Positions 3,769 to 39,835 of a stretch of 64,000 nt of DNA are shown here, one piece after another. The DNA is from Candidatus Bathyarchaeota archaeon (lineage in GTDB: Archaea; Thermoproteota; Bathyarchaeia; Bathyarchaeales; Bathycorpusculaceae): the NCBI GenBank assembly GCA_963715865.1, contig OY970280.1, positions 64,001-128,000 of the forward strand. Direction: 5' to 3'. How positions within the stretch are numbered: the stretch's first letter is position 1; each line of letters starts with the position of its first letter. The notes under the pieces are model-generated. The model had not been told where the DNA came from, ran no database searches, and was given only the letters and a program-made list of their open reading frames with translations. A program made the position numbers and the translations under genes.

Positions 3769-5844
3769 TTGGGAAAATACACGTTAATTATCACTGAAAA
3801 ACCTGATGCCGCAAACAGAATAGCGATGGCTTTGGACGTTGATGGAAAAGCCAAAAAAATAGTTGATAGCGGCGTTACATTTTATCAAGCATACAGGAAC
3901 GGCGACATGGTTGTTGTTCCAGCTCTTGGGCATTTATACACGGTTGCAAGCAAGGAAAGAACTAAACGAGATTATCCAGTTTTTGATTATCAATGGGTTC
4001 CAAGATACCTAGCCGAACGAGGGGCATCAAAGATCCGTATTTGGCTGAAAGTAATTGCGAAACTAGCAGAAAACGCTGAAGAGTTCGTGGATGCCTGCGA
4101 CTTCGACATTGAAGGCAGCATCATAGGCTACTGTATACTCAAGTATGCTTGCGGCAGCAAAGAAGAAACTGCCAAACGCATGAAATATTCCACACTCACA
4201 AAAGAAGAACTGCAAGAATCCTACGCTCACCTATTGCCACATTTGGATTTTGCTCTCGTTGAAGCTGGATTGACAAGGCATGAAGTAGATTGGCTATACG
4301 GCATAAACCTGTCTAGAGCCTTAACAGTGGCTGCGAAAAACAGCAGCGGACAATACGCTACACTCAGCACTGGCAGAGTGCAAGGACCAACCCTCAAATT
4401 TCTGGAAGACCGAGAAAAAACCATAAAGTGCTTCGTGCCCACTCCCTATTGGAGCATAACCGCTAAAATAAACATAAACGGCACAGCTTACCAAGCTGAT
4501 TATGAAAAAATCCTCGAAAGCAAGCAAGAAGCAACGATAGTAGTTGATGCTTGCAAAACTAAGGAAGGCCAAATAGAAACAATAGCGGTAAAAGAGTTTG
4601 AGCAGAACCCACCGTTACCCTTCGACTTGGGCTCTTTGCAAAGTGAAGCTTACAGAATTTTCCGGTACACGCCGATGCGTACTTCAAACATCGCTCAGCA
4701 CCTGTACTTAGATGCATTAATCTCTTATCCACGGACAAGCAGCCAAAAGCTTCCGCCAGCAATCGGCTACGAAACCATATTGAGAAAACTGGGTAAAGTG
4801 CCTGCTTACGCGAAACAGGTAGCTGAATTACTCTCAAAACCAGCATTGAAGCCAAATGAAGGAGAAAAAGCTGACTCAGCGCATCCAGCCATTTACCCGA
4901 CTGGAAACCTGCCTGAAAAACCCCTTGGCACTGCTGAAAGAAATATTTTTGATCTTATCGTCTGCAGGTTCATGGCTGTTTTCGGTGAGCCCGCAGTTCG
5001 TCAAAGCGTGAAAGTAACATTAGGCATTAATGGAAACCATTTTCAACTAAACGGAATACGAACGTTAAGTGAAGGTTGGCTTCGATTTTACGAACCGTAC
5101 GTCCAGCTGAAAGATGTAACTTTGCCACCCTTAACTGAAGGTCAAAAAATTGCTGTTAAAGGAGTAGTTCTGAAGGACAATTTCACTAAACCGCCAGCGA
5201 GGTATAACCCTCGCAGTTTACTTTTGAAAATGGAAAAAGAGGAAATAGGAACCAAAGCGACAAGAGCAGCAATCATACAAACATTGTACGACCGCAAATA
5301 CCTCCACGGGACCGATAGTCTTGTCGTTTCTGACCTTGGCTTTGAAGTCATCGAAATCCTATCAAAGTATTGTCCAACCGTTGTCTCCCCTGAACTAACA
5401 AGAAATCTTGAAGAGAAAATGAATGAAATCCAGCAAGGGAAAGAAACAAAAGAAGTTGTCCTGCAAAATGCCATTGAAATCCTAAAGCCAGTCATATTAG
5501 AGCTTAAAGAAAATGAATCAGTTATAGGTAAACAATTAAATCAAGCATTAAAAAAAGCTCGGCTGGAAGAAAGAATAGTTGGTGCATGCCCAAAATGTGC
5601 TGATGGAAAACTAGTGATTTTACACTCGAAAAAAACAGGTAAACGCTTTGTTGGCTGCACAAACTATTTTGAAGGCAAATGTAACGCAGCCTTTCCACTG
5701 CCGCAAAGTGGCTCGGTGAAACCTTTAGGCAGCGTTTGCAAAAGCTGTGGCTGGCCCACATTACGGGTATGGATGAAAGGAAAGAGGCCTTGGAAATTAT
5801 GCCTAAATCCTAATTGCCCGTCGAAAGGAGCGAGCAACCAGTGA
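3769..5844 (+). CDS. topA: DNA topoisomerase I (type IA)
   Basis: TOPRIM (ITEKP, DFDIEG), STGRVQGPTL, catalytic ISYPRT, C-terminal C4 zinc ribbons. Confidence 0.95.
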   Translation: MGKYTLIITEKPDAANRIAMALDVDGKAKKIVDSGVTFYQAYRNGDMVVVPALGHLYTVASKERTKRDYPVFDYQWVPRYLAERGASKIRIWLKVIAKLAENAEEFVDACDFDIEGSIIGYCILKYACGSKEETAKRMKYSTLTKEELQESYAHLLPHLDFALVEAGLTRHEVDWLYGINLSRALTVAAKNSSGQYATLSTGRVQGPTLKFLEDREKTIKCFVPTPYWSITAKININGTAYQADYEKILESKQEATIVVDACKTKEGQIETIAVKEFEQNPPLPFDLGSLQSEAYRIFRYTPMRTSNIAQHLYLDALISYPRTSSQKLPPAIGYETILRKLGKVPAYAKQVAELLSKPALKPNEGEKADSAHPAIYPTGNLPEKPLGTAERNIFDLIVCRFMAVFGEPAVRQSVKVTLGINGNHFQLNGIRTLSEGWLRFYEPYVQLKDVTLPPLTEGQKIAVKGVVLKDNFTKPPARYNPRSLLLKMEKEEIGTKATRAAIIQTLYDRKYLHGTDSLVVSDLGFEVIEILSKYCPTVVSPELTRNLEEKMNEIQQGKETKEVVLQNAIEILKPVILELKENESVIGKQLNQALKKARLEERIVGACPKCADGKLVILHSKKTGKRFVGCTNYFEGKCNAAFPLPQSGSVKPLGSVCKSCGWPTLRVWMKGKRPWKLCLNPNCPSKGASNQ

Positions 5845-7775: not shown

Positions 7776-8432
7776 ATGAAAGAAAAAGTTGCGGTGGCAA
7801 CAGTCGAAGGAAAGGCCTACTTTCTAATTGTTAACGAGTTAAGAGAACAAAATATCTCCTTCATAAGTTTGGTTCCAGGTGAGCCAGTGCCTGCCGAGGT
7901 GAAAGTGGTTATGACAACTGAGAAGGAAAAGCAGTTAGTAAAGCATGAAAAAATACTAATCTTCAACAATGAAGGTGAGTTGGATAATTTAGTTAACGAA
8001 GTAAAGAGAATACTTCAAGGGAAAGAAGCCTACGAAAAAATAGTAATCGGCATTGACCCAGGTGAGGCAATTGGGCTGGCAGTAATTGCCGATGGAAAAG
8101 TTATTGAGGAAGGTAACTGCTTTAGCACACAAGAGGTAATTAACAGCATAATTAAGACAATAAGAAACGTTAATTTTTCATTAACTAGCGTTTCTGTTAA
8201 AATTGGGAATGGCGTTCCAGTCTACAAGGAATTACTCGAAGCCTTAGATGATGCTTTACCGCCTCAAGTAGCGCTTGAAGTGGTGGGCGAGGCAGGAACC
8301 AACAGACCCTTAAAAGAGAACAAGCGCAGCCGAGGAATCAGACATATTTCTTCAGCCATACAAATAGCTGGAAGAACAGGCTATATTATTCAAAGGAGGA
8401 AGGCAATTGCAACAAACAGTCGAATCCAATAG
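7776..8432 (+). CDS. Hypothetical protein with RNase H-fold-like (YqgF/RuvC-like) domain
   Basis: IVIGIDPGEAIGLAV first-strand motif, later VKIGNG, E..T and H..SA..IA. Confidence 0.55.
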   Translation: MKEKVAVATVEGKAYFLIVNELREQNISFISLVPGEPVPAEVKVVMTTEKEKQLVKHEKILIFNNEGELDNLVNEVKRILQGKEAYEKIVIGIDPGEAIGLAVIADGKVIEEGNCFSTQEVINSIIKTIRNVNFSLTSVSVKIGNGVPVYKELLEALDDALPPQVALEVVGEAGTNRPLKENKRSRGIRHISSAIQIAGRTGYIIQRRKAIATNSRIQ

Positions 8433-9489
8433 AACACTGTTAGTGGATGGTCCAGCATCTGTACAGGTTGTTTCTGGCAAGGCTGAAGTATTCGGTTACC
8501 AAGTAAAACAAACCGCAAGAATTTTAGTTCGTGAAGGCAAGCGACTGCCATTCTTTGTCCTTGAAAAAGCAGTTTTTGACGTTTCGTTAGGAGCGAACGC
8601 AAGCATTGAAGAAGTTGCTGGCAGCACAATTCCAGAGTCATGGAATAAACCTCTTGAAGCGGTTTTGAGCGTGCAGAAGAAGCCGGTGATTGTTTTGCTT
8701 TTGGGGAAAATTGATTCTGGAAAAAGCAGTTTCTGCACTTACTTAGTAAACAAGTTAGTTAACGAAAAATGTAGAGTAGCTGTTTTAGATGGCGATTTAG
8801 GTCAATCAGATATCGGTCCCTCAGGCACGGTGGGTTACGCCTTAGCTTCCAAGCCGGTGAGGGAATTGTATGATTTAAAATTGGAGAACGCTTTTTTTGT
8901 GGGTGTTACCTCGCCGATACTAGCAATAGCTAAAACAATTGAAGGCTTAGCTGCTATGAAGGCTGAGATTTTGGAGAGACCGGTCGATTTTGTGGTGGTT
9001 AATACTGATGGTTGGGTTACAGACGATGTTGCTGTAAGATATAAAACGCAATTAATCAAAGAGCTTAACCCTGACGTTACAGTTGGCGTTCAAGTAGAGG
9101 ATGAACTTGCGCCTCTGATTGCTAACCTAGAAAAAACCCCTATAATTGTAGTAGAACCCTCTGCTTCTCTTAAGCAGCGGAGCGCAGAAAAACGCAAAAG
9201 CCTGCGAGAAATGAGTTACGCAAGGTATTTGAAAGATGCAAAGTTGCAATGTTATCCCATTAGCCAATTGGTAATTGAAGAAAAATCGGCTCTACCGAAA
9301 AATGAAGATGCAGAAAAAGGATTACTTGTCGGGTTATATCGGAGCAAATTTTTAGGAATCGGTGTCTTGCGTGAAATTAATCAGGTAAGAAAAGCGTTAA
9401 AAGTTCAAACTGCAATTTCTGCTAAGCCGTCAAGGATTGTTATAGGAAGAGTTTTGTTAGATGATAAGCTTCGAGAAATTCAGGATTGA
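8407..9489 (+). CDS. Polynucleotide 5'-hydroxyl kinase (Clp1/Grc3 family)
   Basis: Walker A GKIDSGKS, DGDLGQSDIGP, NTDGW motifs. Confidence 0.9.
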   Translation: MQQTVESNRTLLVDGPASVQVVSGKAEVFGYQVKQTARILVREGKRLPFFVLEKAVFDVSLGANASIEEVAGSTIPESWNKPLEAVLSVQKKPVIVLLLGKIDSGKSSFCTYLVNKLVNEKCRVAVLDGDLGQSDIGPSGTVGYALASKPVRELYDLKLENAFFVGVTSPILAIAKTIEGLAAMKAEILERPVDFVVVNTDGWVTDDVAVRYKTQLIKELNPDVTVGVQVEDELAPLIANLEKTPIIVVEPSASLKQRSAEKRKSLREMSYARYLKDAKLQCYPISQLVIEEKSALPKNEDAEKGLLVGLYRSKFLGIGVLREINQVRKALKVQTAISAKPSRIVIGRVLLDDKLREIQD

Positions 9490-11414
9490 ATTTTGAAGAA
9501 ATTGCTTATTTCCCCAGCTAAAACGCCTTTGCCGTCAGGTAAAACCTTCATACCATTGCTAATCCATGATGGCAGGAAACTGCGGCAGTAATTTGTGGCA
9601 AAACGGTAATCTAAAAAGACAATGGCGCCTCGATCATCCAGCGTTCGTATGGGTCTGCCTGCGGCTTGAGAAGCCCGCTTCATAGCGGGCAAAACATAAC
9701 CGTATTCGCGCCCAAGCCCTGGAAAACATTTCTCATAATAATCAATCTGCGCTTTCACCCTCGGCGTCGGCTCCGCATACGGAACACCTACGACTATTAC
9801 AGAGTTCATTTGGTTGCCTGGAAAGTCCACGCCTTCCGAGGTTCTTCCTCCTTGAACACCGAGGAACACGGCGCCGTTTCGGTCGCCGCATGCTTTGAAG
9901 TCTGAGACCATTTTCTCGTTTGCTTTAGAAGTCATACCTCTTCGCTCATGAAATAGGGGTTTTTCTAAAATATTCTCCAGGCCTTCGGAGACCAGAGCGT
10001 TTAGTACTTCGAATGAGGCAGCGAAAATTCCAGTGTTGGTCGGAGTATTCTCTACTACCTCGTTTATTCGTTGTATGATTGTTTGGTACATTGCTGGGGT
10101 TCTTTTTTCCATGGATGTGGTGACGCCGAGGGAAACGGCTGAGAACACGTGTTCTTTTGGAAACGGCGATGGCACAATGCATTTCACAGTGCTTTGTGGC
10201 AGTTTTGTTATTCGTGCGTAAGCTTCCAGCGGCTGAAGAGTACCCGACATTATAACGTTAGCATAAGTTGATGAGAAAACAGGTTCAGTAATTTTCGATG
10301 GGTCCAGTGCAACAATTTCTAGTTTTGCTGTTTTATTTTTTTCTTTGTTGAGATAGCGACTTGCGACGTTTATGTATGAGTTGTCGCCTAAGGTTTCAAG
10401 CCATTTTAGCAGGAAATCGCCCATTGCATGGACATAGGAGCGTGGGTTTTTTCCCTCTGTCAACAAACTCTTCTTAATTGCACTGCCTGCTTCATGCAAG
10501 TGTTCAAAGAATTCTCTGGGATTAGAGACATTGCCCTGCTTTTGAATGATTTCAATAATTCTATCTGGCGAGATTATTTCTTCTCTGTAAACCTGGTCGG
10601 TTAATTTTTCCACTTCAGTTCTAAAAAATTGGGCAAAATTCTCAATGTCTTTGTTGCCGAACCTGTTGGCTTCTAATTCTGCCTGCTTCATCACAAAAAG
10701 CGATAGGGTGCTGCTTGAGATGTCAATAGCTGTCTCAGGCAAGTTATGCGCTTCGTCAACGATTAAAATTATTTTTTGCAGTTCTGATTCAAGATTTTTC
10801 AGAAATGCTGTTCGAATCACGGGGTCGAAAACGTACAGGTAGCTTAAGGCAACTACTTTGGCATCTGATAAAGCAGACTTCACAAGTTCGTATGGGCAGA
10901 TTTCTTTTTTCTTGCATATTCTAAGAATTTCAGACGCCATATATGGACGAGCTGCGACTTGCTGTTGAAGTTGAAGGTAATCGTAGGTTCGCTCGTCCAC
11001 GTTAATGTAGTAAGGGCATCTGCTTTTGGCTTTCAGTAACTCACAAACTTCCATCATTGACTTTGAGTCAAAAGCGCCTTTAGCAGCGAAAACGTTAAGG
11101 CACATTTCATTGCGCCCGCGAATGGAAACGCCTGCAACTGGGTGCTTCTTGTATATTGCTCTTAATTCTTCTATAACGCGGTCATGCTGCCGATGAGTCC
11201 GCGCCACATAAAGTATTTTCAAGTTTTTCTCGATGGCAACTGGTAAGCAAGCGGAAAGAGCTGAAATGGTTTTTCCCAACCCGTTGCTGCCTTCAATGAG
11301 TACAGAACGTCTCTCATGTACAGCGTTGAAAACCGTGTTCACAAACTCATCTTGATGGGGACGCACACTAGAGTAAGGGAAATACTCTGTAACTTCAGAA
11401 GGTAGCTTAATCAT
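9480..11414 (-). CDS. xpd: XPD/Rad3/DinG family Fe-S DNA helicase
   Basis: GSNGLGKT, four Fe-S cysteines, DEAH box, SGTL, SEGVDFPG, QAAGRPIR. Confidence 0.9.
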   Translation of the reverse strand: MIKLPSEVTEYFPYSSVRPHQDEFVNTVFNAVHERRSVLIEGSNGLGKTISALSACLPVAIEKNLKILYVARTHRQHDRVIEELRAIYKKHPVAGVSIRGRNEMCLNVFAAKGAFDSKSMMEVCELLKAKSRCPYYINVDERTYDYLQLQQQVAARPYMASEILRICKKKEICPYELVKSALSDAKVVALSYLYVFDPVIRTAFLKNLESELQKIILIVDEAHNLPETAIDISSSTLSLFVMKQAELEANRFGNKDIENFAQFFRTEVEKLTDQVYREEIISPDRIIEIIQKQGNVSNPREFFEHLHEAGSAIKKSLLTEGKNPRSYVHAMGDFLLKWLETLGDNSYINVASRYLNKEKNKTAKLEIVALDPSKITEPVFSSTYANVIMSGTLQPLEAYARITKLPQSTVKCIVPSPFPKEHVFSAVSLGVTTSMEKRTPAMYQTIIQRINEVVENTPTNTGIFAASFEVLNALVSEGLENILEKPLFHERRGMTSKANEKMVSDFKACGDRNGAVFLGVQGGRTSEGVDFPGNQMNSVIVVGVPYAEPTPRVKAQIDYYEKCFPGLGREYGYVLPAMKRASQAAGRPIRTLDDRGAIVFLDYRFATNYCRSFLPSWISNGMKVLPDGKGVLAGEISNFFKIQS

Positions 11415-28822: not shown

Positions 28823-30475
28823 TTATTCTTCGCCTTCAGGACCGCCGGGCATTCCGCCTGGGCCACCTGGACCGCCTTTTGGTGATTTGGCTGTTATGAC
28901 GTCGTCTATGCGCAGTATCATGGCTGCTGATTCAGCTGCGGATTTGATGGCTTGTTCTTTGACTACGAGTGGTTCGATGACTCCGTTGTCGATGCTGTTT
29001 TGTAGTTTGCCTGTGAAAACGTTGATGCCTATGTTTTTGCCGTCTTGTGTGTCGTGTTTTGAGCGTAGTTCGACTAGGATGTCTATTGGTTCTAGTCCTG
29101 CGTTTTCTGCGAGTGTGCGTGGTATTACTTCGACTGCCTCTGCGAATGCTTCAACGGCTAATTGTTCTCTTCCGCCGACTTTTGTTGCGTACTTGCGTAG
29201 TTCTTTAGCAACTTCGATTTCTACTGCTCCTCCGCCTGCGACGATTTTGTTGTTTTCTATTACGTCTGAGATTACTGATAGTGAGTCGATCATGGCTCTT
29301 TCTGCTTCGTCAACCATTCGTTCGAGTCCTGCGCGGATGAGTATGGCTACGCTGTGTGGGTCTTTGCATTTTTCGACGAATATCATTTTGTCGTCGCCGA
29401 TTTTGCGTTCTTCAACTAAGCCTGCCATGCCTAGGTCTGCGGGTTTGAGGTCGTCTAGGTCGCTGATTATTCTTCCGCCTGTTGCTCTTGCGAGTTTTTC
29501 CATGTCTGATTCTTTTACGCGGCGTGCTGCCATTATGCCTTCTTTGGATAGGAAGTGTTGTACCATGTCGTCGATGCCTTTTTGGCAGAAGACTACGTCT
29601 GCTTTTGAGGCTTTGATTTTTGTAACCATGTCTTTCATCATGTCGGTTTCTTGGTCTAGGAATGCTTTCATTTGTGATGGGTCTTTAATGCGGATTTCAG
29701 CGCTGATTTCTGTTTTTTCTATTTCTAATGCTGACTCTAAGAGGGCGATTTTTGCGTTTTCTTTTATCTTTGGCATTCCTGGATTAACGACTTCTTTGTC
29801 AATGATTATTCCTCTGATAAGTTGAGTTTCAATGAGGCTTTTGCCTGTTTTCTTGATAAGTTGAATGTTATCTATGTCGGCTATTGTTTTGTCGCCGCGT
29901 TGCTCTGCAATTTGTTTGACTGCGTCGATGGATATTTCTGCTAGGTGCTCTCTTGCTGCGCCTACTGCTTTGCTGCTCATTGATGTTAATGCGACTTTGA
30001 GGAGTGTTTTGCGGTCGTTTACGTCAAGTGGAATGGCTATTTTGTTTAGGACTTCGATTGCTTTTTGGGATGCTTTTCGGTAGCCGCTGACTAGAATTAT
30101 TGGGTGGATGTTTTGGTCTAGGAGTTCTTCTGCTTTTTTGAGTAGCTCACTTGCTAGGACGACTGCGGTTGTTGTTCCGTCGCCGACCATGTCGTCTTGT
30201 GTTTTGGCGATTTCAACCATCATTTTTGCTGCTGGGTGTTCTACGTCTATTTCTTTTAGGATTGCTGCGCCGTCGTTTGTTATTGTTATGTCGCCAAGAG
30301 AGTCGATGAGCATTTTGTCCATGCCTCTTGGGCCTAGTGTGGTTTTGAGGACTTCGCCGATTACTCGTGCGGCCATTATGTTGTTTCTTTGGGCTTCTTT
30401 GCCCCTGCTTCTGGTTGTTCCTTCTTTAAGTATTAATACTGGCTGTCCTGAACCTGTTGTTGTTAAATACGCCAT
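28823..30475 (-). CDS. ths: Thermosome (group II chaperonin) subunit
   Basis: [37 protein letters not shown]. Confidence 0.97.
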
Positions 30476-30886: not shown

Positions 30887-31294
30887 TTAGATCCATGCTG
30901 TTTCGATTTCTTTGATTTGTTTAATATGTTGGTCGTCTGTGATGCATACTGCCTTGAGTGTAAATGCTGTGGCGGCAATCATGCTGTCTCCCATTGACAG
31001 GTGGTACTTGTGTCGTAGTTCCGCAGAGATTTCTGCTATTTGGTCGTCAACTGGGATGATTTCAAAGTCTTGTTTAAGGAAAGTGACTTTAAGTTTTGCG
31101 GTTTCTCGTCCTTCGGTAGCCATAGAGGTATTGTATAGCTCATGGATTACTATTGTTGAAACGTATTTTTCTTTCCTTATCTTTTCGTTTCTTATTTTTT
31201 TCCGTATGGTGTCATCTTTGGATCTGTAAAGTTGGGTGAAGAATCTGGTATCATAGACTGCTGCTTTATTCATCTTCATGCCTGAGCTTGTCAA
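30887..31294 (-). CDS. vapC: VapC/PIN toxin
   Basis: VYDTRFF, E, GDSMIAATA, TDD.H. Confidence 0.9.
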   Translation of the reverse strand: MTSSGMKMNKAAVYDTRFFTQLYRSKDDTIRKKIRNEKIRKEKYVSTIVIHELYNTSMATEGRETAKLKVTFLKQDFEIIPVDDQIAEISAELRHKYHLSMGDSMIAATAFTLKAVCITDDQHIKQIKEIETAWI

Positions 31295-31496
31295 GTAGTT
31301 TATCTATTTCTTCCGCGGTAGCAGAGTCTGAATATGCTCCTATCATGTCCCATATTGACTTTTTAGGCTTGAGTAGTATGCCTTCTTCTGTGTCAAGCAC
31401 TTCAAGTCTTGTGCCTTCTTCTATTTTGTACTTTTTGCGTAGCCGCACAGGAATGGTGGTCTGACCTTTTTTGGTTACGACAACTTCGGTTTCCAT
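31266..31496 (-). CDS. AbrB/MazE-type antitoxin
   Basis: VTKKGQTTIP..LRKK..IEEG; overlaps vapC. Confidence 0.9.
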   Translation of the reverse strand: METEVVVTKKGQTTIPVRLRKKYKIEEGTRLEVLDTEEGILLKPKKSIWDMIGAYSDSATAEEIDKLLDKLRHEDE

Positions 31497-31613: not shown

Positions 31614-32177
31614 TTGGTGAGTGGTGTGAGCCAAAGTTTCCTCCTAGAAGCCAACGACTTCATCATGAAAAAGAAAATCCTATCTGCACGAGAACACTAC
31701 GACTTCGAAGACACAGCAGGCAACAAATTAGGCGAAGCCGACGGCAACTTCCTTCAGGTTCCCGCCAAATTTACCGTCAAGGACACTCATGGGTTAGAGC
31801 TTATGCACTTGCAGGGGAAGGTGTTCACGATGCGAAGCGAGTTTACTTTTCACGGTTCAGCTAATGAAGAGTTGGGCACAATAAAGAAGAAAATAGCCAA
31901 GCTCATCGGCGAAGAATTCTGGATAGAAAAAAACGGCGCCGAGTTCATGCGCATCTACGGAGACTTCACCGAGCACGAGTATCAAATGGAAGTCGATGGC
32001 GTCCCGGTTGCTTCTGTTCACAAGAAATGGATATCTGTAAGAGACCAGCTCGGAGTCTCAATAACAGGAGACGTTGATCACCGAGTGGTTATCGGAGCAG
32101 TGATTGTGATAGAACACGTAGAAGTTACAGAGAGGCAATCTTCATCAGGTTCAGGGAATATGAACATTCGATTTTAA
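31614..32177 (+). CDS. LURP-one/scramblase (Tubby-C-like) protein
   Basis: Repeated beta hairpins; GDFTEHEY, VA.V.KKW.S.RD. Confidence 0.75.
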   Translation: MVSGVSQSFLLEANDFIMKKKILSAREHYDFEDTAGNKLGEADGNFLQVPAKFTVKDTHGLELMHLQGKVFTMRSEFTFHGSANEELGTIKKKIAKLIGEEFWIEKNGAEFMRIYGDFTEHEYQMEVDGVPVASVHKKWISVRDQLGVSITGDVDHRVVIGAVIVIEHVEVTERQSSSGSGNMNIRF

Positions 32178-32242
32178 ATATTATCGGAGCGGTAATTGTG
32201 ATAGAACACATAGAAGTCACAGAAAGACAAACCTCGAGCTAA
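32089..32242 (+). repeat. Diverged direct duplication of the LURP gene 3' end (32089-32150 and 32181-32242)
   Basis: Copy 1 encodes IGAVIVIEHVEVTERQSSS; copy 2 encodes IGAVIVIEHIEVTERQTSS-stop. Confidence 0.9.
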
Positions 32243-32292
32243 TGCAAGTTATTTATACTTAAACCTTCAATTCCGTTTTAGGGTGCACACGG

Positions 32293-32586
32293 TTGAGCGA
32301 AGACAATAAAGAGATAATAAAATTGCTCCGTGAACAAAACAAAAACATTGAAATGCTCTGCAAGATTACGGCGCTATCTTTGAAGAAGGAGACGCCTCTA
32401 GAAGAAAAAAAGAAAGAAACCAAGCAAGACCAAATTCAAGTATTGGACGAACTTAACCTTCCTGATAGCATAATCGCATTAATAATCGGTAGCACACCAG
32501 GTTCTGTTCAGAACGCAAGAAGTCTTATGAAGGCTAAAAAAACGCCGAAACCTCCGCAAACAAACACTGAAGAAAATAAAGGGTAA
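32293..32586 (+). CDS. Small helix + HTH protein, paralogue of 34931..35257
   Basis: E...LRE....I..L.K..AL ... I..LD.L......IA..IG.TP..V pattern shared with 34931..35257. Confidence 0.75.
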   Translation: MSEDNKEIIKLLREQNKNIEMLCKITALSLKKETPLEEKKKETKQDQIQVLDELNLPDSIIALIIGSTPGSVQNARSLMKAKKTPKPPQTNTEENKG

Positions 32587-32643
32587 CGAGAAACAGCAAA
32601 AAATAGCTTAAGATCGGATTATTGTAGGTTGGTTAAGAGCAAA

Positions 32644-33396
32644 TCATGTAATTGTTTTTCTTGCTTTAAGAAACCTTGCAAGGTCTACTGGATCACACAA
32701 GACACCAAGATTTTCATTTCCAACTGATTTTCCGTATTCAACAAGCTCTGAAGTAACAGAATCTGCAACGTTTCTTGCCAATACAACCAATACATGCTGC
32801 GGATTAGTTCTATTGTATGCTTTGAGAACTTGATAGGCAATCTTTTCCCAATTAATTGTTCCATCAAGGCTCTTGGAACCTTTAACAACACAAGAAAAAG
32901 TAGTAGGCGTTCCCTTAACACGAACTGAGAAATGCTCCAGATCAGCGACCTCAAGGACAGTATCCTTTCCTCTGCTTCTACAATTTGTCGCGTTCTTTTC
33001 TCTCAAAGAATCCACTAAGGCTTCTTGAATCCTTTCCTCGGGAAGTGTTGCAAGTCTCGTGACGGATTTCTTTCCTTCTTCTATGGGAACGAGTAATGTC
33101 TCAGGAAAAACATCGGAAAAAGTTAGGGGCCCCACTTCACGATACTTTGATAACTGGTCAAGCATTTCATCGAGCGGTAGAACCTCAACAAGAGTATCAT
33201 AATTAATTTTGTTCAAAGAGTAGAATGGGCTTTCAAATGATTTTATGTTATCGACAAGTTCTTTCAGTGAGTGAGGGTCATTTTTTATAATGTGACATGA
33301 GAGTTTCGAGCTAAAATTATCATAATCTCTCCACCCGATAGATTGAATTCGATTAAGCACTCTATTGGTTATTGCTATTTCCAGACTGGGATTCAT
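32644..33396 (-). CDS. Putative restriction-endonuclease-fold (PD-(D/E)xK-like) nuclease, last gene of the wHTH array
   Basis: EERIQEAL helix, E.ADL...VVKG core, Mrr-like Q...AY; ATG 33396 overlaps the upstream wHTH gene. Confidence 0.55.
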   Translation of the reverse strand: MNPSLEIAITNRVLNRIQSIGWRDYDNFSSKLSCHIIKNDPHSLKELVDNIKSFESPFYSLNKINYDTLVEVLPLDEMLDQLSKYREVGPLTFSDVFPETLLVPIEEGKKSVTRLATLPEERIQEALVDSLREKNATNCRSRGKDTVLEVADLEHFSVRVKGTPTTFSCVVKGSKSLDGTINWEKIAYQVLKAYNRTNPQHVLVVLARNVADSVTSELVEYGKSVGNENLGVLCDPVDLARFLKARKTIT

Positions 33397-33790
33397 TTTC
33401 AGAGACCTTTGTTTGCGGTATTGGGAAGTGATCTCTAACGTAATCATCCATTCTCAAAGTCTTAGCCCATTGCGGTTTTGCATAGATTGGGCTTCCACCT
33501 TTAGTTTGCTCTGTGTCATATATCAAACCATGCTTATCCAAATGATCTATTGCGCGCCATACAGTTGGTTGTGACCCACCAACTTTTCCTTGGATTTCTT
33601 TTCCGCTTTTAATTCCATCGACCTCAAGAAATATTCGGACACGTATTAAGTTGCCAGCAAGCGTGTCAGAGACTAACTTTTCGTATTGTTCTCGATTGAT
33701 GTGCTGGCTAACTTCTTGGGATTGTCTAATTTCTTTTATTTCTTTTTTTATACTGATTATTTCTTTTGCCGTATCAGGTGTTTCAGGCAT
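33362..33790 (-). CDS. Coiled-coil + winged HTH protein (array gene 8)
   Basis: IF.EVDGIKSGKEIQ.KVGGSQPTVWRAI..L.KHGLI; SD GGTGA. Confidence 0.8.
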   Translation of the reverse strand: MPETPDTAKEIISIKKEIKEIRQSQEVSQHINREQYEKLVSDTLAGNLIRVRIFLEVDGIKSGKEIQGKVGGSQPTVWRAIDHLDKHGLIYDTEQTKGGSPIYAKPQWAKTLRMDDYVRDHFPIPQTKVSENESQSGNSNNQ

Positions 33791-33801
33791 TCAAATCACC
33801 T

Positions 33802-34107
33802 TTAAAATATCTGCTCATGAACTTGTTTACCATCCTTTTCAACGGTTCTAATTAAACCTTCGCGCCTTAAGGTGCTGATATATGAGCCAACGTATTCAGG
33901 CGTCTTTTTGAGTACTTGAGTTATGTCCTGAGTACTCTTACTTCCATCACACAGGTTGTAGATTTGCAGCTTGACTGTGCCTTCTTTTAGCAAACTTTGC
34001 TTAATTTGGGAAAGGTTTTGTTGATTTGCTAGAAGGAACAATGACTTTTGTTCTTCAAGAACTCTTAGAATATCATTCAGTAATTCTTTTTCTGATTTTT
34101 CAGGCAC
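33802..34107 (-). CDS. Coiled-coil + winged HTH protein (array gene 7)
   Basis: IYNLCDGSKSTQDI...LKKTPEYV..YIS.LRREGLI. Confidence 0.8.
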   Translation of the reverse strand: MPEKSEKELLNDILRVLEEQKSLFLLANQQNLSQIKQSLLKEGTVKLQIYNLCDGSKSTQDITQVLKKTPEYVGSYISTLRREGLIRTVEKDGKQVHEQIF

Positions 34108-34126
34108 TTATAGAACCCCTTTTTCT

Positions 34127-34492
34127 TCACTTTCTCTTAGTTGGTGATTGTACCTCTGGTTTAGAAATGCTCTGCGGAACTACAATGCCAAAGTCTTCTA
34201 AATCAAAGGAACGTTTGAACCTAGATCCGCCTTTTACAGGGATGCTTTCGCCTAACCCTTGTTTAAGCCAAGCCTGCCACATATCGAATACCGTTCTGGT
34301 ACTTCCGATATTAGCTGTTTTGGCAACTTCTACAGTACCACGTGTTCCATCACTTAAGTAATAAGCGAATTTTTTCTGCTCGGTGTCTAAGCTGTCTACT
34401 AGAATAGCCTTAACTTCTTTAATGCCTGCAAATTTTACCCATTTGAGAATTTCGCGCAGAATTTTAGTTTGCTCTGATTCACTATTACTCAT
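34127..34492 (-). CDS. Winged HTH protein, KWxKFAG paralogue (array gene 6)
   Basis: LKWVKFAG...YYLSDG.RGT.EVA...TV...W..W..QG...RF....LEDFGI.VP. Confidence 0.8.
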   Translation of the reverse strand: MSNSESEQTKILREILKWVKFAGIKEVKAILVDSLDTEQKKFAYYLSDGTRGTVEVAKTANIGSTRTVFDMWQAWLKQGLGESIPVKGGSRFKRSFDLEDFGIVVPQSISKPEVQSPTKRK

Positions 34493-34934
34493 TACTTTTC
34501 TGCTCCTTTGTCACTGTATCCAATAGTTTAGATTGCGTTTCCTTTTTTTCGTCTTCTTCATTACCTTTGGCCGACTTAACTTCGGTACTTTGCGTTACTT
34601 CCTGTTTTTCTTCGGCAAACAATAGGTTTAACCAAGAAGGAGGAATGTAATCTAACATTTTGTGAGGAGGTTCACGTTGCGCGTAAGCGACTAAGTCAGC
34701 CGCTGATGCACCATCAAGAAATCGAGATACAGTCATTGGGCTGATGCCAACTTCTTTAGCGATATCTTTAGGCATGCGTTTTCCATCAATCAAAATCCAT
34801 ATCTTTTTGCGCGCATCATTATCTGCGATTTTTCCAAGTTCTATGTCCAGTTGTTTTGAATTCGCAAGCAACAAAATCTTGGATATTTTTTTCAATTCAC
34901 TCAATACAGTGCTGTCTTGATTAGGTAAAGTCAC
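34485..34934 (-). CDS. Coiled-coil + winged HTH protein (array gene 5)
   Basis: IWILIDGKRMPKDIAKEVGISPMTVSRFL; GTG start overlapping the upstream stop. Confidence 0.8.
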   Translation of the reverse strand: MTLPNQDSTVLSELKKISKILLLANSKQLDIELGKIADNDARKKIWILIDGKRMPKDIAKEVGISPMTVSRFLDGASAADLVAYAQREPPHKMLDYIPPSWLNLLFAEEKQEVTQSTEVKSAKGNEEDEKKETQSKLLDTVTKEQKSNE

Positions 34935-35257
34935 TTCTTCGTCTTCTCCTTTGATTTATTGGTTGCTGACTCGAGAATTTCCATAACGCTAGCATTTTCT
35001 GTAACCTGAGGTTTACCACTTATCATTGATTTCTTTTCACCTTTTTTCTTTCTAATACTGCTAAGCACAACATTGATGTTTTCTGGCGTCTTGTTTAGAA
35101 GCTTAGCAATATCTACGGGTCGGAAACCAAGAGAATCCAACAACTCTATTTTTCCTTGCTCTCCTGTAATCCCTTTGACTACTTCCAATGCTTGCAACCT
35201 GAGGAGTTTGTCCATTTTATCTGAGATTTCTCGTAAGAGCTCATCAGTGGTGCTCAT
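34931..35257 (-). CDS. Small helix + HTH protein (array gene 4)
   Basis: DELLREISDKMDKLLRL.AL...IELLDSLGFRPVDIAKLLNKTPENINV. Confidence 0.8.
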   Translation of the reverse strand: MSTTDELLREISDKMDKLLRLQALEVVKGITGEQGKIELLDSLGFRPVDIAKLLNKTPENINVVLSSIRKKKGEKKSMISGKPQVTENASVMEILESATNKSKEKTKK

Positions 35258-35625
35258 TTTTTAGCCTCCAGCTTACTTTCTTCTGTGCTTTGCTTCTTAA
35301 GCTTCAATGAAGGGACAGCTATGCCAAAATCTTCAAGGTCAAACGCTTTTTTAAATCGCTGCCCACCTTTAACTTTGATAGGGTCCACAATCCCTTGTCT
35401 TGACCATGATTCCCAATAATTTCTAACGGTTCCATCACTTACATCCGCCACTTCGGCAATTTTTAGGGTTCCGTTGTTGCCATCGCTTAAGTGATAGATT
35501 AAACGTTTCTGTTCCGAATCCAAGGCTGTCGTGAGCACGTTTCGAACTTCTTTTGCTCCTGCAAATTTTGTCCATTTCAGCATTTCGCGCATTATCGCAA
35601 TAAGTTCATCCATTTGAGTGCTCAT
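35254..35625 (-). CDS. Winged HTH protein, KWxKFAG paralogue (array gene 3)
   Basis: LKWTKFAG...YHLSDG..GT..IA...TV..YW..W..QG...RF....LEDFGI.VP. Confidence 0.8.
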   Translation of the reverse strand: MSTQMDELIAIMREMLKWTKFAGAKEVRNVLTTALDSEQKRLIYHLSDGNNGTLKIAEVADVSDGTVRNYWESWSRQGIVDPIKVKGGQRFKKAFDLEDFGIAVPSLKLKKQSTEESKLEAKK

Positions 35626-36017
35626 TTCTGAGACTCTCCTTCTTCCTTTCCTTTGCTACTTGTATCAGGCTTACTGGCAGCTACACCCGTCTGTTCTTTC
35701 TTTTTCCTTTTTAGCTCTAATGGATTTATGCCTAATTCACGTAAAGTGAAAAGTGCTTTGTAGGCTTTCAGATAATCATTTGGGGGACTAACGAGCCCAG
35801 CTTCAACAAATTTACTTATCCAACCGCTAACAGTTGTTTGGGCGATTCCTGTTTCAGCTTCAATTTTCTGCTGTGATTTGCCTTCAGCTAGTTTTTCGTA
35901 AACTTGGGCTTTTTCTAGTGTATCTATAACCACCTTAGCAACGGACTTTGCTGCGGCAGCAGCACTTATCCGCAAGTAAGTTCGTATATCATTCAAAATC
36001 TTATCAGTTTCACTCAT
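35622..36017 (-). CDS. Coiled-coil + winged HTH protein (array gene 2)
   Basis: ATG 36017 (MSETDKILNDIR); VYEKLAEGKSQQKIE.ETGIAQTTVS.WI.KF.EAGLV. Confidence 0.8.
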   Translation of the reverse strand: MSETDKILNDIRTYLRISAAAAAKSVAKVVIDTLEKAQVYEKLAEGKSQQKIEAETGIAQTTVSGWISKFVEAGLVSPPNDYLKAYKALFTLRELGINPLELKRKKKEQTGVAASKPDTSSKGKEEGESQK

Positions 36018-36438
36018 TCTCTTCAACCTCAGGCTCTGATTCGTCTTGAGAATTTCCGACCGATTGTGGCATCGGCGGCACAGCAAGGCCAACGTCTTCC
36101 AAAGAACAAATCCGCTCATATCTACCCTGATAGCCGTTCGAGGGTATGACAATTCCTAGTTTACTCCATCTTTTCCAATAACGAGCAACTGTTTTGTTGC
36201 TTTTTATGCCTGCAAGCATAGCAACTTCTCTTGTTCCACGTCTTCCATTTGAAAGCTCATAAACCAGAGCTGCAGCATTGTCATTCAGTGCTTGGCTCAA
36301 AATAGTTTTAAGTTGCTGCATACCAGCAAACTTATTCCATTTGAGGAGCTCCGTTAATTTACTTTCAATATTTTTGAGAGCTTTTAATTCTTCTGACAAC
36401 TTTCCTCTCTCTCCCTGCGTATAGGGGATTATCGGCAT
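36010..36438 (-). CDS. Winged HTH protein, KWxKFAG paralogue (array gene 1; start may be TTG 36399)
   Basis: LKWNKFAG...YELSNG.RGTREVA...TV..YW..W..LG...RY....LED.G..VP. Confidence 0.8.
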   Translation of the reverse strand: MPIIPYTQGERGKLSEELKALKNIESKLTELLKWNKFAGMQQLKTILSQALNDNAAALVYELSNGRRGTREVAMLAGIKSNKTVARYWKRWSKLGIVIPSNGYQGRYERICSLEDVGLAVPPMPQSVGNSQDESEPEVEENE

Positions 36439-36627
36439 ATTTAAGTTTTATTGCAAAATTGAATTAACAAGGTCTTTTTATAAATCTTATATATAAACGT
36501 TAATTTTATCTATTCAGCCAAGTAAAAGTTAATCTTCAGAACGAATTATTGTCCCATCTAAATAGCGTTAGAAACCAGAAATGGGCGAAATGGACGGAGG
36601 TTTATCGCTGTTGCCAAAACACTGGTT

Positions 36628-37002
36628 CTACTTTTTTCGTATGTTGCATTGGAGCACTTTTGGGCAGATTAAGCATTCATCTTGTGTAAGCATGCTTTCT
36701 CCTGGTGCATGCAAGAGTCCGCTGAAGTGAGCGCATTTAGCTGGTGAATCGAAAACTGTGGGGTATTCGGTTGGTTTCACGCTTATTATTTTCGTGTTCT
36801 CGGTTAATATGTCAAGTTTTGACATGCAGTAGGGGCAAGCGTAATGCGTTTCTCTGGGAATCACGGATGTGTCTGTGATAACGGTTGGCTTATCGAATTT
36901 TTTCTCGCATCCCTTGTAGGGGCACTTGAGCTTTTCGTCGTGATGCCCGTGGAAAATCTGCAGTTTCACTCGCCTCCCTGATGCGAACATCGAATATAGC
37001 AA
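36628..37002 (-). CDS. Hypothetical multi-Cys zinc-finger-like protein
   Basis: CPYKGC, CPYC, C..F, CLICP...C. Confidence 0.6.
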   Translation of the reverse strand: MLYSMFASGRRVKLQIFHGHHDEKLKCPYKGCEKKFDKPTVITDTSVIPRETHYACPYCMSKLDILTENTKIISVKPTEYPTVFDSPAKCAHFSGLLHAPGESMLTQDECLICPKVLQCNIRKK

Positions 37003-37210: not shown

Positions 37211-37444
37211 GTGAAGTTTATGGTGGAAATTAAGGGTAGGAAGTTCACAGTAATTCTTAGGGAGGAACCAGAAGGCGGATACTCTGCGCAATGCGTGGAA
37301 CTCCCGGGAGCAATTAGCCAGGGAGAGAACCGCAAAGAAGCCCTCGCCAACATAAAAGAAGCCATTGAAGGCTATCTGGAAGCGTTCCCCGAAGAATTTG
37401 ACCAGCTTAAGCGGAAGAGAGAGCTGGTGGAGATAACTGTCTGA
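37211..37444 (+). CDS. hicB: HicB-family antitoxin
   Basis: EEPEGGYSA.C.ELPGAISQGE..EEALANIKEAI..YLE. Confidence 0.9.
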   Translation: MKFMVEIKGRKFTVILREEPEGGYSAQCVELPGAISQGENRKEALANIKEAIEGYLEAFPEEFDQLKRKRELVEITV

Positions 37445-37448
37445 AAAG

Positions 37449-37661
37449 TTGCCCTCTGTTTCTTGGAGCAAAGTCATTAAAGCTCTCACTAAAGCTGGAC
37501 TTAAAATAGTAAGTCAAAAAGGCAGCCACATATTTTTGAGCGACGGAAAGCATAAGCTTACAGTTCCATGTCACGATACTATCAAAAAAGGAACACTTCT
37601 CGCAATCATACAGCAGGCAGGATTAACCAGAGAAGAATTTCTCAAATTAATAAAAAAGTAA
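37449..37661 (+). CDS. hicA: HicA-family mRNA interferase (start possibly CTG 37437)
   Basis: L.KAG....QKGSH......TVP.H..IKKGTL..I..QAG. Confidence 0.9.
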   Translation: MPSVSWSKVIKALTKAGLKIVSQKGSHIFLSDGKHKLTVPCHDTIKKGTLLAIIQQAGLTREEFLKLIKK

Positions 37662-37662
37662 A

Positions 37663-37739
37663 TGGAGCCTCGAGCGGGCCTTGATCCCGCGGCCTGCTGC
37701 TTACGAGGCAGCCGCTCTACCGGGCTGAGCTATCGAGGC
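37663..37739 (-). tRNA. tRNA-Thr(CGT), CCA encoded, no intron
   Basis: GCCTCGA acceptor / TCGAGGC-T-CCA; anticodon arm GCTGC-CTCGTAA-GCAGC; T-arm GCGGG-ATCAAGG-CCCGC. Confidence 0.93.
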
Positions 37740-38079: not shown

Positions 38080-38307
38080 GTGCAGAAAATCGTTAAAGTC
38101 ACAAGAAAGGGACAGACAACCATTCCTGCGGAAATCAGAGAGAAGCTAGGAATAAAAGAAGGCGACGAGTTGGTCGTGGAAGCTATTGATCAAAGAGTAG
38201 TCTTCAAGCTCATACCTAGAATAGAGGAGTGCGGGGGAATCTTCGCGGGACATGCTGACATGGCAGAACTGAAAAAGGAGATTGACAAACTCCGTGAGGA
38301 ATACTAG
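38080..38307 (+). CDS. AbrB/MazE-type antitoxin
   Basis: VTRKGQTTIPAEIREKLGIKEGD. Confidence 0.9.
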   Translation: MQKIVKVTRKGQTTIPAEIREKLGIKEGDELVVEAIDQRVVFKLIPRIEECGGIFAGHADMAELKKEIDKLREEY

Positions 38308-38310
38308 CTT

Positions 38311-38709
38311 TTGAAGCAAGTACTGGATAGCAGGTTTCTCGTAGAATACTATTATTCTCAAGACAAGGAAACACAACAGAAAGCTAACCAGAAAATGAAG
38401 GAACTAATTCAAACAGGTAACGGGATAATCCCAACCATAGTTCTCTGCGAAACCATTCAGATAATCTGCTCAAGAGAAGGTAAAGATAAAGCAGAAATGA
38501 TCTATCTATCAATAGTGACAAGTGGAATGAAAATGGAGGACCTAAGTCCTTCCATCGCTAAGGAAGCTGGCATTCTAAAGAGTACATACAAGCATATTCC
38601 TGTAGGCGATTGCATCATTGCCGCAACAGCTATTAGAAATCAAGCTAAGATAATTTCAGACGATCCCCATTTCGATTCCATAAAAGAAACCAAACGCGCT
38701 TGGGTATAA
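38311..38709 (+). CDS. vapC: VapC/PIN toxin
   Basis: VLDSRF, E, GDCIIAATA, SDDPHF. Confidence 0.9.
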   Translation: MKQVLDSRFLVEYYYSQDKETQQKANQKMKELIQTGNGIIPTIVLCETIQIICSREGKDKAEMIYLSIVTSGMKMEDLSPSIAKEAGILKSTYKHIPVGDCIIAATAIRNQAKIISDDPHFDSIKETKRAWV

Positions 38710-38791: not shown

Positions 38792-39835
38792 TTGGAGAGT
38801 GGTTGTGTGGATAAAGATAAAACTGGAAAAGGCTTTCCAAGAGAAACAAGCACAGACATCGGTGAACGAAAAATAATCGAAATCGTCGCCAGCCACCTTG
38901 AAGTCATGCCTAATTTACCTGTACCTTTCGGAGATGATGTTGCCGCTGTTAACCTTGACCAAAAACAAGTCGCCGTATTAAAAACTGACATGCTTGTAGG
39001 CAAAACTGATGTCCCCCGAAACATGAGCCTGTGGCAAGCAGCAAGGAAAGCGGTGGTTATGAACATCAGCGATTTTGCTTCTAAAGGCGTCCAGCCCACA
39101 GCATCTCTTGTTTCTCTCGGGTTACCTAGAGATGTTATGCGAAAAGATATCGAAGAAATCGCGCGCGGGTTGAATGCGGGAGCACGTGAATACGGCGCTT
39201 ACGTTATTGGCGGCGACACAAGTGAAGCTTCAGACCTTATCATTTCGATTTCGCTTTTTGGAACAGCTAAAAGAGCAGCGCTAATGTTGCGTAATGGGGC
39301 TAAGCCTGGTGATGTTTTGGCGGTTACGGGTTTCTTTGGAAAATCAGCCTCTGGTTTATGCTTGCTTTTAGATAACTGTTCAGCGTCTCCGAATCTGCGT
39401 GAAGTACTATTGGGTGCAGTTTGTATGCCTAAAGCTAGGCTAAAGGAAGGATTAGCGCTTAGCCATTCAGGTGCGGTCTCGGCTTCTATCGACTCGAGTG
39501 ACGGCTTAGCCTGGAGTCTACATGAGATTGGAAAAATGAGTAACGTTGGTTTTGTAGTTAATAGTGTTCCTGTTGCCGATGAAGTTAGGCGCTTTGCTGA
39601 GTTTAACCATCTTGACCCTTTGGAGCTGGCGCTTTATGGCGGTGAAGAATACGAGCTTGTGGTAACTGTTAAGCCTAAAAGGTGGGTTGATGCTGAAGCC
39701 GCGGTTGAAGCGGTTGGCGGATGCCTTTTGCCTATTGGAAAAGTCACAAGGGATAGGCAGATGCTTTTAGATGTTGACGGCAAGAAACGTGTTATCGAAG
39801 CTCGGGGCTGGGAGCATTTTAAGAGTAAGATTTAG
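38792..39835 (+). CDS. thiL: Thiamine-monophosphate kinase
   Basis: GE..II, GDD.A, KTDMLV, NISD.A.KG, GGDT, DSSDGL, GGEEYELV. Confidence 0.95.
   Translation: MESGCVDKDKTGKGFPRETSTDIGERKIIEIVASHLEVMPNLPVPFGDDVAAVNLDQKQVAVLKTDMLVGKTDVPRNMSLWQAARKAVVMNISDFASKGVQPTASLVSLGLPRDVMRKDIEEIARGLNAGAREYGAYVIGGDTSEASDLIISISLFGTAKRAALMLRNGAKPGDVLAVTGFFGKSASGLCLLLDNCSASPNLREVLLGAVCMPKARLKEGLALSHSGAVSASIDSSDGLAWSLHEIGKMSNVGFVVNSVPVADEVRRFAEFNHLDPLELALYGGEEYELVVTVKPKRWVDAEAAVEAVGGCLLPIGKVTRDRQMLLDVDGKKRVIEARGWEHFKSKI

Follow-up and report, generated by a model that had tools for sequence, protein, structure and literature searches.

An operon of eight small genes encoding predicted winged helix-turn-helix (wHTH) proteins, ending in a gene for a protein of nuclease-like fold, was found in a 64,000-nucleotide stretch of the genome of a Candidatus Bathyarchaeota archaeon (GCA_963715865.1, contig OY970280.1, positions 64,001 to 128,000; hereafter the window), and we hold with moderate confidence that it represents a conflict system, probably antiviral or directed against mobile elements, in which a swappable effector is coupled to one particular wHTH subunit, here called G. 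A sequence-only reading of this region had proposed a multi-wHTH system tied to an effector rather than scattered regulators, and this part of its interpretation was supported, since arrays with orthologous subfamilies recur and the effector halves are swapped among them.

All eight small genes described in that reading were present on the minus strand in the same orientation, and their junctions were exactly as claimed, the first five being the overlaps ATGAGTGA, ATGA, ATGA, GTGA and ATGAGTAA and the last two being gaps of 19 and 11 nt. Starting from the upstream end, the operon comprises O1 (36010-36438; 142 residues; subfamily A, with the motif LKWxKFAG ... LEDxG.xVP), whose orthologues include L001_a and L004_a (68 and 52% identical to it); O2 (35622-36017; 131 residues from the ATG overlapping the O1 stop; subfamily B, with orthologues that include L001_b and L004_b); O3 (35254-35625; 123 residues; subfamily A, 81% identical to L001_c); O4 (34931-35257; 108 residues; subfamily C, a helix-turn-helix (HTH) with a basic tail and no clear wing); O5 (34485-34934; 149 residues from a GTG start; subfamily D, with an acidic tail and an isoelectric point of 5.6); O6 (34127-34492; 121 residues; subfamily A, 86% identical to L001_f); O7 (33802-34107; 101 residues from a GTG start; subfamily F, the usual neighbour of G); and O8 (33362-33790; 142 residues; subfamily G, the proposed effector-coupling subunit). 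The order in the window is A-B-A-C-D-A-F-G and then E (32644-33396, minus strand, 250 residues). Judged from their sequences, the eight small open reading frames (ORFs) are real genes and not chance ORFs, because each has orthologues 50-86% identical, in the same order, in other genomes. The layout said to be common to them (an N-terminal helix, a Y.L.DG turn, an IA...TV segment and a G[LI] wing) could be aligned, except that O4 and the protein P9 had no evident wing. P9 (32293-32586, plus strand, 97 residues) is the ninth related HTH gene that had been noticed on the opposite strand; it is convergent on E, lies inside the inserted unit described below and belongs to a C-related family with homologues inside or beside arrays at loci L028, L033, L050, L051 and L104. 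Upstream of the operon (36439-36530, minus strand), a TATA-like TTTATATA occurs about 50 nt before the O1 ATG within a leader common to L001, and the aligned upstream regions of the window, L001 and L031 share TGAATAGA, TATA-like and CAATAAAACTTAAAT blocks, which marks this region as a putative promoter.

The gene at the end of the operon, E, encodes a helical N-terminal domain (Ntd, residues ~1-95) joined to an Mrr-like PD-(D/E)XK-fold C-terminal domain (~103-250), and it is the Ntd that recurs beside G. Over about 40 loci, we counted 42 adjacencies in which G is directly followed by an Ntd-bearing gene, usually in overlapping frames. In the profile search and at the loci, the Ntd was joined in most cases to a restriction endonuclease (REase) fold, and elsewhere to HNH (L029, 7.5e-12; P0192, 8.9e-15), to CHAT proteases (P0196, P0212 and P0217), to a class III nucleotidyl cyclase (P0209, 4.5e-19; in L037 its gene comes directly after G) or to an AAA ATPase (P0214, in the array A-C-D-F-G-[Ntd-AAA] of L038), while several fusions carry unnamed C-terminal domains. 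The Ntd-HNH protein of L029 aligned to the E-family profile with a probability of 99.4% over the Ntd, and it terminates the array A-A-[HEPN]-C-D-A-F-F-G-[Ntd-HNH]; HEPN genes are also found inside E-type arrays (HEPN_Swt1 in L003 and L029). For the CHAT fusions, one contig was read (L036), which was too short to show the upstream genes, and G was not visible in it. Moreover, G itself is fused to a Schlafen/AlbA_2 domain (PF04326, 1.6e-24) at L056 (2451-3254, minus strand), where a second, divergent array, D-F-[G-SLFN]-A-C-C-C, adjoins a standard D-F-G-[Ntd-REase] array; another gene of this locus that had been considered G-like (8213-8935) was discarded as a wHTH-CTP-dependent riboflavin kinase. 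Constant adjacency, domain swapping and fusion are standard comparative-genomic signs of two parts working together, and since adjacency and domain swapping were seen for G and the effector, along with a fusion of G, we propose that G docks the effector through the Ntd. No copy of the Ntd was found outside the effector, as the E-family profile recovered only E in the genome of the window and the Ntd hidden Markov model (HMM) recovered only the effector gene in the arrays; any partner of the Ntd, presumably G, would therefore be heterotypic. A predicted-complex run with E and O8 scored 0.00, was made without controls and counts neither for nor against binding.

Arrays without G and E close with other genes, namely HEPN_Swt1 (L108 and L110), an HTH protein with Hypoth_Ymh (L109) or CHAT (L105). 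Besides, proteins of 391 and 392 residues, 53% identical to each other, follow A-B-A-D-F arrays without G at L069 (8124-9299) and L070 (8864-10042). In the middle of these proteins lies a coiled-coil-like region, and at their C-terminus an SDISL...AECKFW segment in which a D..ExK pattern can be read from sequence only; the family has no Pfam match and no Ntd, and the alignment of the 391-residue effector to the E-family profile with hhalign was not significant (probability of 1.9%). The A-B-A-D-F core is thus the common part and the end module the variable one. The alternative effector of about 278 residues at L065 gave only a sub-threshold lead to Mrr_cat (0.86) in a feature search of the ESM-Atlas.

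The order of the array is conserved beyond the window. In the congeneric locus L031, the order A-B-A-C-D-A-F-G-E is identical, and at L001, where E is 73% identical, the window's genes are present with C and D reversed. The array is found again, with genes lost, gained or permuted, in about 45 loci, with 2-10 wHTH genes per locus and E identities down to 35-40%, and F directly precedes G in about 30 of 43 arrays. Genomes with an E protein 40-75% identical keep the subfamilies in an identical or similar order. The orthologous order across distant loci indicates that the paralogues are old and individually retained, not recent tandem duplicates. Orthologues are 64-86% identical where E is 73-75% and ThiL 63% identical. 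The system is single-copy in the genome of the window, and its distribution is patchy: among 401 Bathyarchaeia genomes, 9 contain E and 21 contain family A, and of 40 congeners E is present in 1. The E family counts 110 clusters at 90% identity, against 663 for family A, and 88 representatives among 1.84 billion proteins; a scan of genome contigs with one of the alignments returned two loci only. Homologues of the studied genes were annotated as Candidatus Bathyarchaeota or Bathyarchaeia. A core chromatin role was rejected because of this patchy distribution, so that of the chromatin-like coat suggested in the sequence-only reading, the chromatin function is unlikely and a coating of invader DNA is the part that may stand.

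The nine small proteins of the window show 13-37% pairwise identity between subfamilies in an alignment of these proteins. Subfamilies A (O1, O3 and O6), B, C, D, F and G were obtained from all-against-all BLAST and HMMs built from the loci, and subfamily A is recognized by the motif LKWxKFAG ... R..R.F.LEDFGI.VP. Most of the proteins remain under the Pfam thresholds with weak HTH matches; O2 passes HTH_28 (1.2e-5, 25.7 bits for a cut-off of 25) and O5 matches the LacI HTH just below the cut-off (7.3e-6). The AlphaFold2 (AF2) model of O8 (pLDDT 82.9) contains a long N-terminal helix (residues 5-31), an ArsR/MarR-like wHTH, C-terminal helices and a disordered tail, and its best Foldseek matches were SqrR, BigR, HlyU and CzrA (probability 1.0, TMt about 0.7). 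In the ESM-Atlas, the model of O8 matched a MarR/ArsR cluster (TM 0.77) and lay near a wHTH-AlbA_2 cluster. The winged-helix fold with flanking helices was modelled for O8 alone, and the assignment of the other proteins as probable ArsR/MarR-like wHTH proteins follows from alignment and the weak Pfam HTH matches. The ArsR/SmtB and MarR repressors resemble O8 in their overall fold and in the N- and C-terminal helices, which form the dimer interface in those proteins; these repressors are single and homodimeric, whereas six to seven diverged subfamilies are co-encoded here, translationally coupled and tied to an effector. Additionally, the extreme N-terminus of the G family is almost invariant in the alignment of O8 relatives (M-P-E-T-x-D-T-A-K-E-I), which is uncommon where a protein begins and may point to an N-terminal peptide with a role in docking or processing.

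The E gene was read from the ATG at 33396 (MNPSLEIA), with an overlap of 35 nt with O8, because its homologues are mostly about 250 residues long and align from MNPSLEIA. In the AF2 model of E, built with a 30-sequence alignment (pLDDT 87.7), residues ~103-250 form the alpha-beta-beta-beta-alpha-beta core of the PD-(D/E)XK fold and were matched by VIA-align to AspBHI, AF1548 and MspJI (Z 9.0, 8.9 and 8.6 over 112-137 residues) and to FokI (Z 7.2), as well as to Can2, the Avs4 nuclease domain and Rpb5. The nearest ESM-Atlas clusters were Mrr_cat. The fold assignment is based on VIA-align and the ESM-Atlas; Foldseek against the PDB gave no match at E-value <=0.001 (best 4.8e-3), and there was no match of E to Pfam, NCBIfam or PADLOC, Mrr_cat included. 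The earlier description of the last gene as nuclease-like is thus backed by the fold and finds no echo in the family databases. The type IV enzymes Mrr, MspJI and AspBHI share the fold of the C-terminal domain, whereas the N-terminal domain of E is neither SRA nor Mrr_N; an HRDC-like reading of the Ntd (VIA-align Z about 7) fell in the chance range for small helical bundles and was kept as a lead only. Residues E120, Q124, D145, E149, E154, K172 and Q189 are invariant in the E family, and D152 is nearly so. One protein of 501 residues (P0159) consists of a full-length E homologue and, after it, a cupredoxin/plastocyanin-like domain (PF13473, 1.3e-8), either through a fused gene call or as a genuine peculiarity.

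The source genome is archaeal, complete and assembled as a single contig of 2.35 Mb. The region under study extends between a thermosome gene (28823-30475) and thiL (38792-39835), and it also contains two VapBC pairs (30887-31496 and 38080-38709) and a HicAB pair (37211-37661). The island itself lies between a LURP-one-like gene (31614-32177) on its left and, at the right-hand border of the insertion, a gene for a zinc-ribbon-like Cys/His-rich protein of 124 residues (36628-37002, minus strand, CPYKGC...CPYC), and the whole unit (about 32180-36610) comprises ten genes in 4.4 kb. A genome of the same genus (G187) carries the thermosome, VapBC, LURP-one-like and zinc-ribbon-like genes and, further on, thiL, with the island absent and only about 540 bp at the place of 32180-36610. 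Since the flanking gene order is kept without the unit in this genome, the ten-gene unit is, on such a comparison, a discrete 4.4-kb insertion. A repeat search showed that the LURP-one-like gene has its 3' end duplicated over 55 nt at the left edge of the unit (32181-32235, plus strand), this second copy being 85% identical to the first (32089-32143); positions 32182-32230 are 88% identical to the end of the congener's LURP-one-like gene, to which the second copy is closer than the first. The placement of this second copy, directly after the stop and bordering the island on the left, suggests recombination at the gene's 3' end as the way in which the island was acquired. Nothing notable beyond this duplicate was found among direct and inverted repeats examined as candidate operators or att sites, and no integrase, replication or structural genes occur within the 4.4-kb unit.

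The neighbourhoods of the other copies are unrelated, and frequent neighbours in them are PIN toxins, type III restriction-modification (RM) and HinfI RM systems, GIY-YIG genes, transposases, GmrSD or a STAND ATPase; the flanking genes also include type II/III methyltransferases (MTases) with ResIII, MADS, AriA, Old and GajA-like genes. Among 107 flanking ORFs, PIN (5) and AAA_21 (3) were the top Pfam families, and PADLOC matches to MADS, AriA, Old, GajA, TmtA and MTase were obtained.

A class of computationally defined systems with a comparable layout has been proposed in a preprint under the names 'poly-wHTH systems' and 'PRA-wHTH-based systems' (doi 10.64898/2026.10.19.760177, 22 Oct 2026), to the text of which the following comparison refers. 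In this class, at least six fast-evolving wHTH genes with variable N-terminal extensions stand in a row; the effectors are mostly HEPN, and also cyclase (cNMP), HKD and TIR, and some arrays are reported without an evident effector (doi 10.64898/2026.10.19.760177). It is presented in one paragraph of comparative genomics, without experiments, in which the authors favour a model where invader DNA is coated and the effector serves as a backup, and the PRA-wHTH family was first found upstream of ParA-Tox-RelA (doi 10.64898/2026.10.19.760177). The island in the window has a multi-wHTH run (eight genes and one opposite) and a variable downstream effector, and it shares with the described systems, as do its relatives, the multiple wHTH genes, the variable effectors (HEPN and cyclase), the N-terminal extensions and an interpretation directed against selfish elements. 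In contrast, the text of that description contains no dedicated adaptor pair, whereas G and the constant N-terminal domain of the effector are invariant here; the effectors found here go beyond the list given there (REase-fold, HNH, CHAT, AAA and Schlafen/AlbA_2); the subfamilies are orthologously conserved in a semi-fixed order, the likeness to poly-wHTH systems being one of description; and no link to ParA or Tox-RelA was seen in the loci inspected. No ParA-like gene occurs in the island or among the flanking Pfam families of at least two loci (25 of 109 families listed). The same preprint describes archaeal ParA-wHTH systems (PwHTH1) in which the wHTH has an elongated N-terminal helix (doi 10.64898/2026.10.19.760177); helix 5-31 of the O8 model is a similar feature, and the ParA neighbour of PwHTH1 has no counterpart in the island. 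At L004, a gene on the same strand as the array and 0.9 kb upstream of it (3833-4570, plus strand) encodes a 245-residue protein with a weak N-terminal winged-helix signal and a PLDc_2 domain of the PLD/HKD nuclease type (1.6e-14), which is possibly a second effector of the kind listed in the preprint, and no TIR effector occurred among the loci inspected.

The Ntd can also be compared with the effector-associated domains (EADs), small non-enzymatic all-helical domains fused to alternative effectors (caspase-like, REase, HNH and others) and encoded beside a core component, which act homotypically with a second copy on the core protein of NTP-dependent conflict systems (PMC7159879, eLife 2020). 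The Ntd is likewise a small helical domain joined to REase, HNH, CHAT, cyclase, AAA or unnamed domains. Unlike the EADs, it has no homotypic second copy and no vWA-MoxR, GTPase or STAND core, and Pfam gave no EAD match for E. The view that a layout of this kind is absent from described systems therefore needs to be narrowed: with poly-wHTH systems now proposed, the layout itself is no longer unprecedented, while we found no earlier description of the rule that couples G to the Ntd, of this range of effectors or of the conserved order of the subfamilies.

In the conflict system that we favour, the eight translationally coupled ArsR/MarR-like proteins (A-B-A-C-D-A-F-G) would be made together and would assemble through their N- and C-terminal helices, which are dimerisation elements in this fold, into a hetero-oligomeric sensor or scaffold that binds nucleic acid. 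G (O8) would couple the array to the effector, with the ~95-residue Ntd as docking adaptor and the C-terminal half as an interchangeable weapon. The effector would be held or silenced in the resting state, and the nuclease would be licensed when foreign DNA is engaged or when the array is disturbed by an invader, leading to restriction or abortive infection. A hetero-oligomeric assembly seems the most economical reading because of the dimer-interface helices of O8, the translational coupling and the retention of each subfamily, and we are inclined towards a guarded effector rather than coating because of the tight coupling between G and the effector and the moderate conservation of the subunits. 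A bolder version, possible and at present doubtful, is that the array would be an ordered hetero-oligomeric wHTH machine free of nucleoside triphosphatases (NTPases), in which G docks interchangeable effectors via an unrecognised heterotypic adaptor and diverged DNA-binding subunits, instead of one sensor, read the invader and license the weapon, and which would constitute a distinct archaeal immune architecture.

Several observations weigh against a conflict system. The canonical D...(D/E/Q)-x-K triad is not found in E, where the residues are V170-V171-K172 and a valine stands two before the lysine throughout the aligned E family. With valine in place of the middle acid, catalysis would need a relocated acid, for which E154, E149 or E120 are candidate substitutes and for which Cfr10I-type enzymes offer a precedent, or the domain may only bind DNA. 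No NTPase or obvious signal-generating core is present in the island, and PADLOC-DB 2.0 found in it only weak likenesses of the wHTH parts to the HTH domains of Csa3, CasR and CARF proteins (E-values from 1e-4 to 0.07) and nothing for E. The wHTH subfamilies are 67-82% identical to the congener's copies against 63% for ThiL and are thus not hypervariable, and such moderate conservation would fit conserved complex subunits better than direct arms-race sensors. Additionally, about half of the flanking genes are housekeeping genes, and the counts of defence genes are raw. Finally, some arrays lie beside virus-like genes and could serve a mobile element: at L101 (genome G368), a T4-type large-terminase gene (9771-11225, minus strand; PF03237, 6.5e-18) is directly upstream of an A-B-A-D-A-F array, a copy that may lie inside a provirus, and the array of L069 adjoins HK97-gp10-like genes.

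These two loci also speak for a module of viruses or mobile elements, in which the wHTH genes would form a regulatory cascade or a superinfection-exclusion set and the window would hold a remnant cassette. The clean insertion of the window's unit with a duplicated target-gene end agrees with this, as does the association of wHTH and MarR families with viruses and plasmids in archaeal dark-matter islands (PMC4158269). Integrase, replication and structural genes are nevertheless missing from the window's unit and from most loci inspected, and a pattern scan of IMG/VR with the G family returned no relative, so that we regard this explanation as distinctly unlikely; it overlaps with the conflict-system reading, because proviruses themselves often carry defence systems. 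Somewhat better placed, and still unlikely, is an addiction or regulatory module of the toxin-antitoxin (TA) kind, in which the nuclease (or HEPN, HNH or CHAT protein) would act as the toxin, and the wHTH proteins, as antitoxins or autorepressors, would stabilise the island without dedicated invader sensing. Small HTH genes upstream of and coupled to a nuclease-type gene resemble the logic of type II TA systems, VapBC and HicAB pairs surround the island, other copies have PIN genes at their flanks and the conserved upstream region could be an operator. However, five to nine different HTH genes, long diverged and each retained as an orthologue, are more than a single toxin needs, neither a cyclase nor an AAA ATPase, both of which can occupy the effector position, is a typical TA toxin, and some of the arrays in the literature, as the preprint reports, lack any effector.

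The same effectorless arrays are in favour of the mechanism preferred by the authors of the preprint (doi 10.64898/2026.10.19.760177), in which coating is primary and the effector a backup, the wHTH proteins polymerising on the invading nucleic acid to block its expression or replication. The many DNA-binding-type domains with charged tails would suit such a role, but the effector is almost always present in our loci and tightly coupled to G, and the subfamily sequences are conserved rather than rapidly diversifying; as the primary function, coating appears very unlikely to us. Least credible of all, and close to dismissal, is that these are ordinary paralogous transcription factors for host genes next to an unrelated gene of nuclease fold. 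Each small protein does have the predicted fold of homodimeric ArsR/MarR repressors, yet the linkage of array and effector is conserved through domain swapping, the operon is translationally coupled, the unit is patchy and inserted, and at L056 G is fused to an effector-like domain.

With its 10 genes in 4.4 kb and its clear boundaries, the locus is a tangible and compact instance of a multi-wHTH system, and it yields a testable rule, according to which G and the Ntd always come as a pair, whereas the catalytic half can belong to any of at least four identifiable enzyme classes (five if CHAT is counted) or be an unnamed domain. If this coupling is physical, it would represent a new adaptor pair and a way to build sensor-effector systems free of NTPases, and it would supply an experimental footing for the poly-wHTH class.

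Some minor features of the surroundings can be added. A tRNA-Thr(CGU) gene (37663-37739, minus strand), the only match of an Rfam scan, lies between the HicAB pair and the VapBC pair at 38080-38709, and the stretch of about 80-120 nt that holds it is 87-96% conserved in two congeners and present twice in L034. The zinc-ribbon-like protein at the right-hand border has no Pfam match and is 68-83% conserved in congeners. In the congener G187, the thiL orthologue (L034, 9154-10207) was matched in two parts, the match being interrupted by one TAG and one TAA, and is possibly a broken gene or an assembly error.

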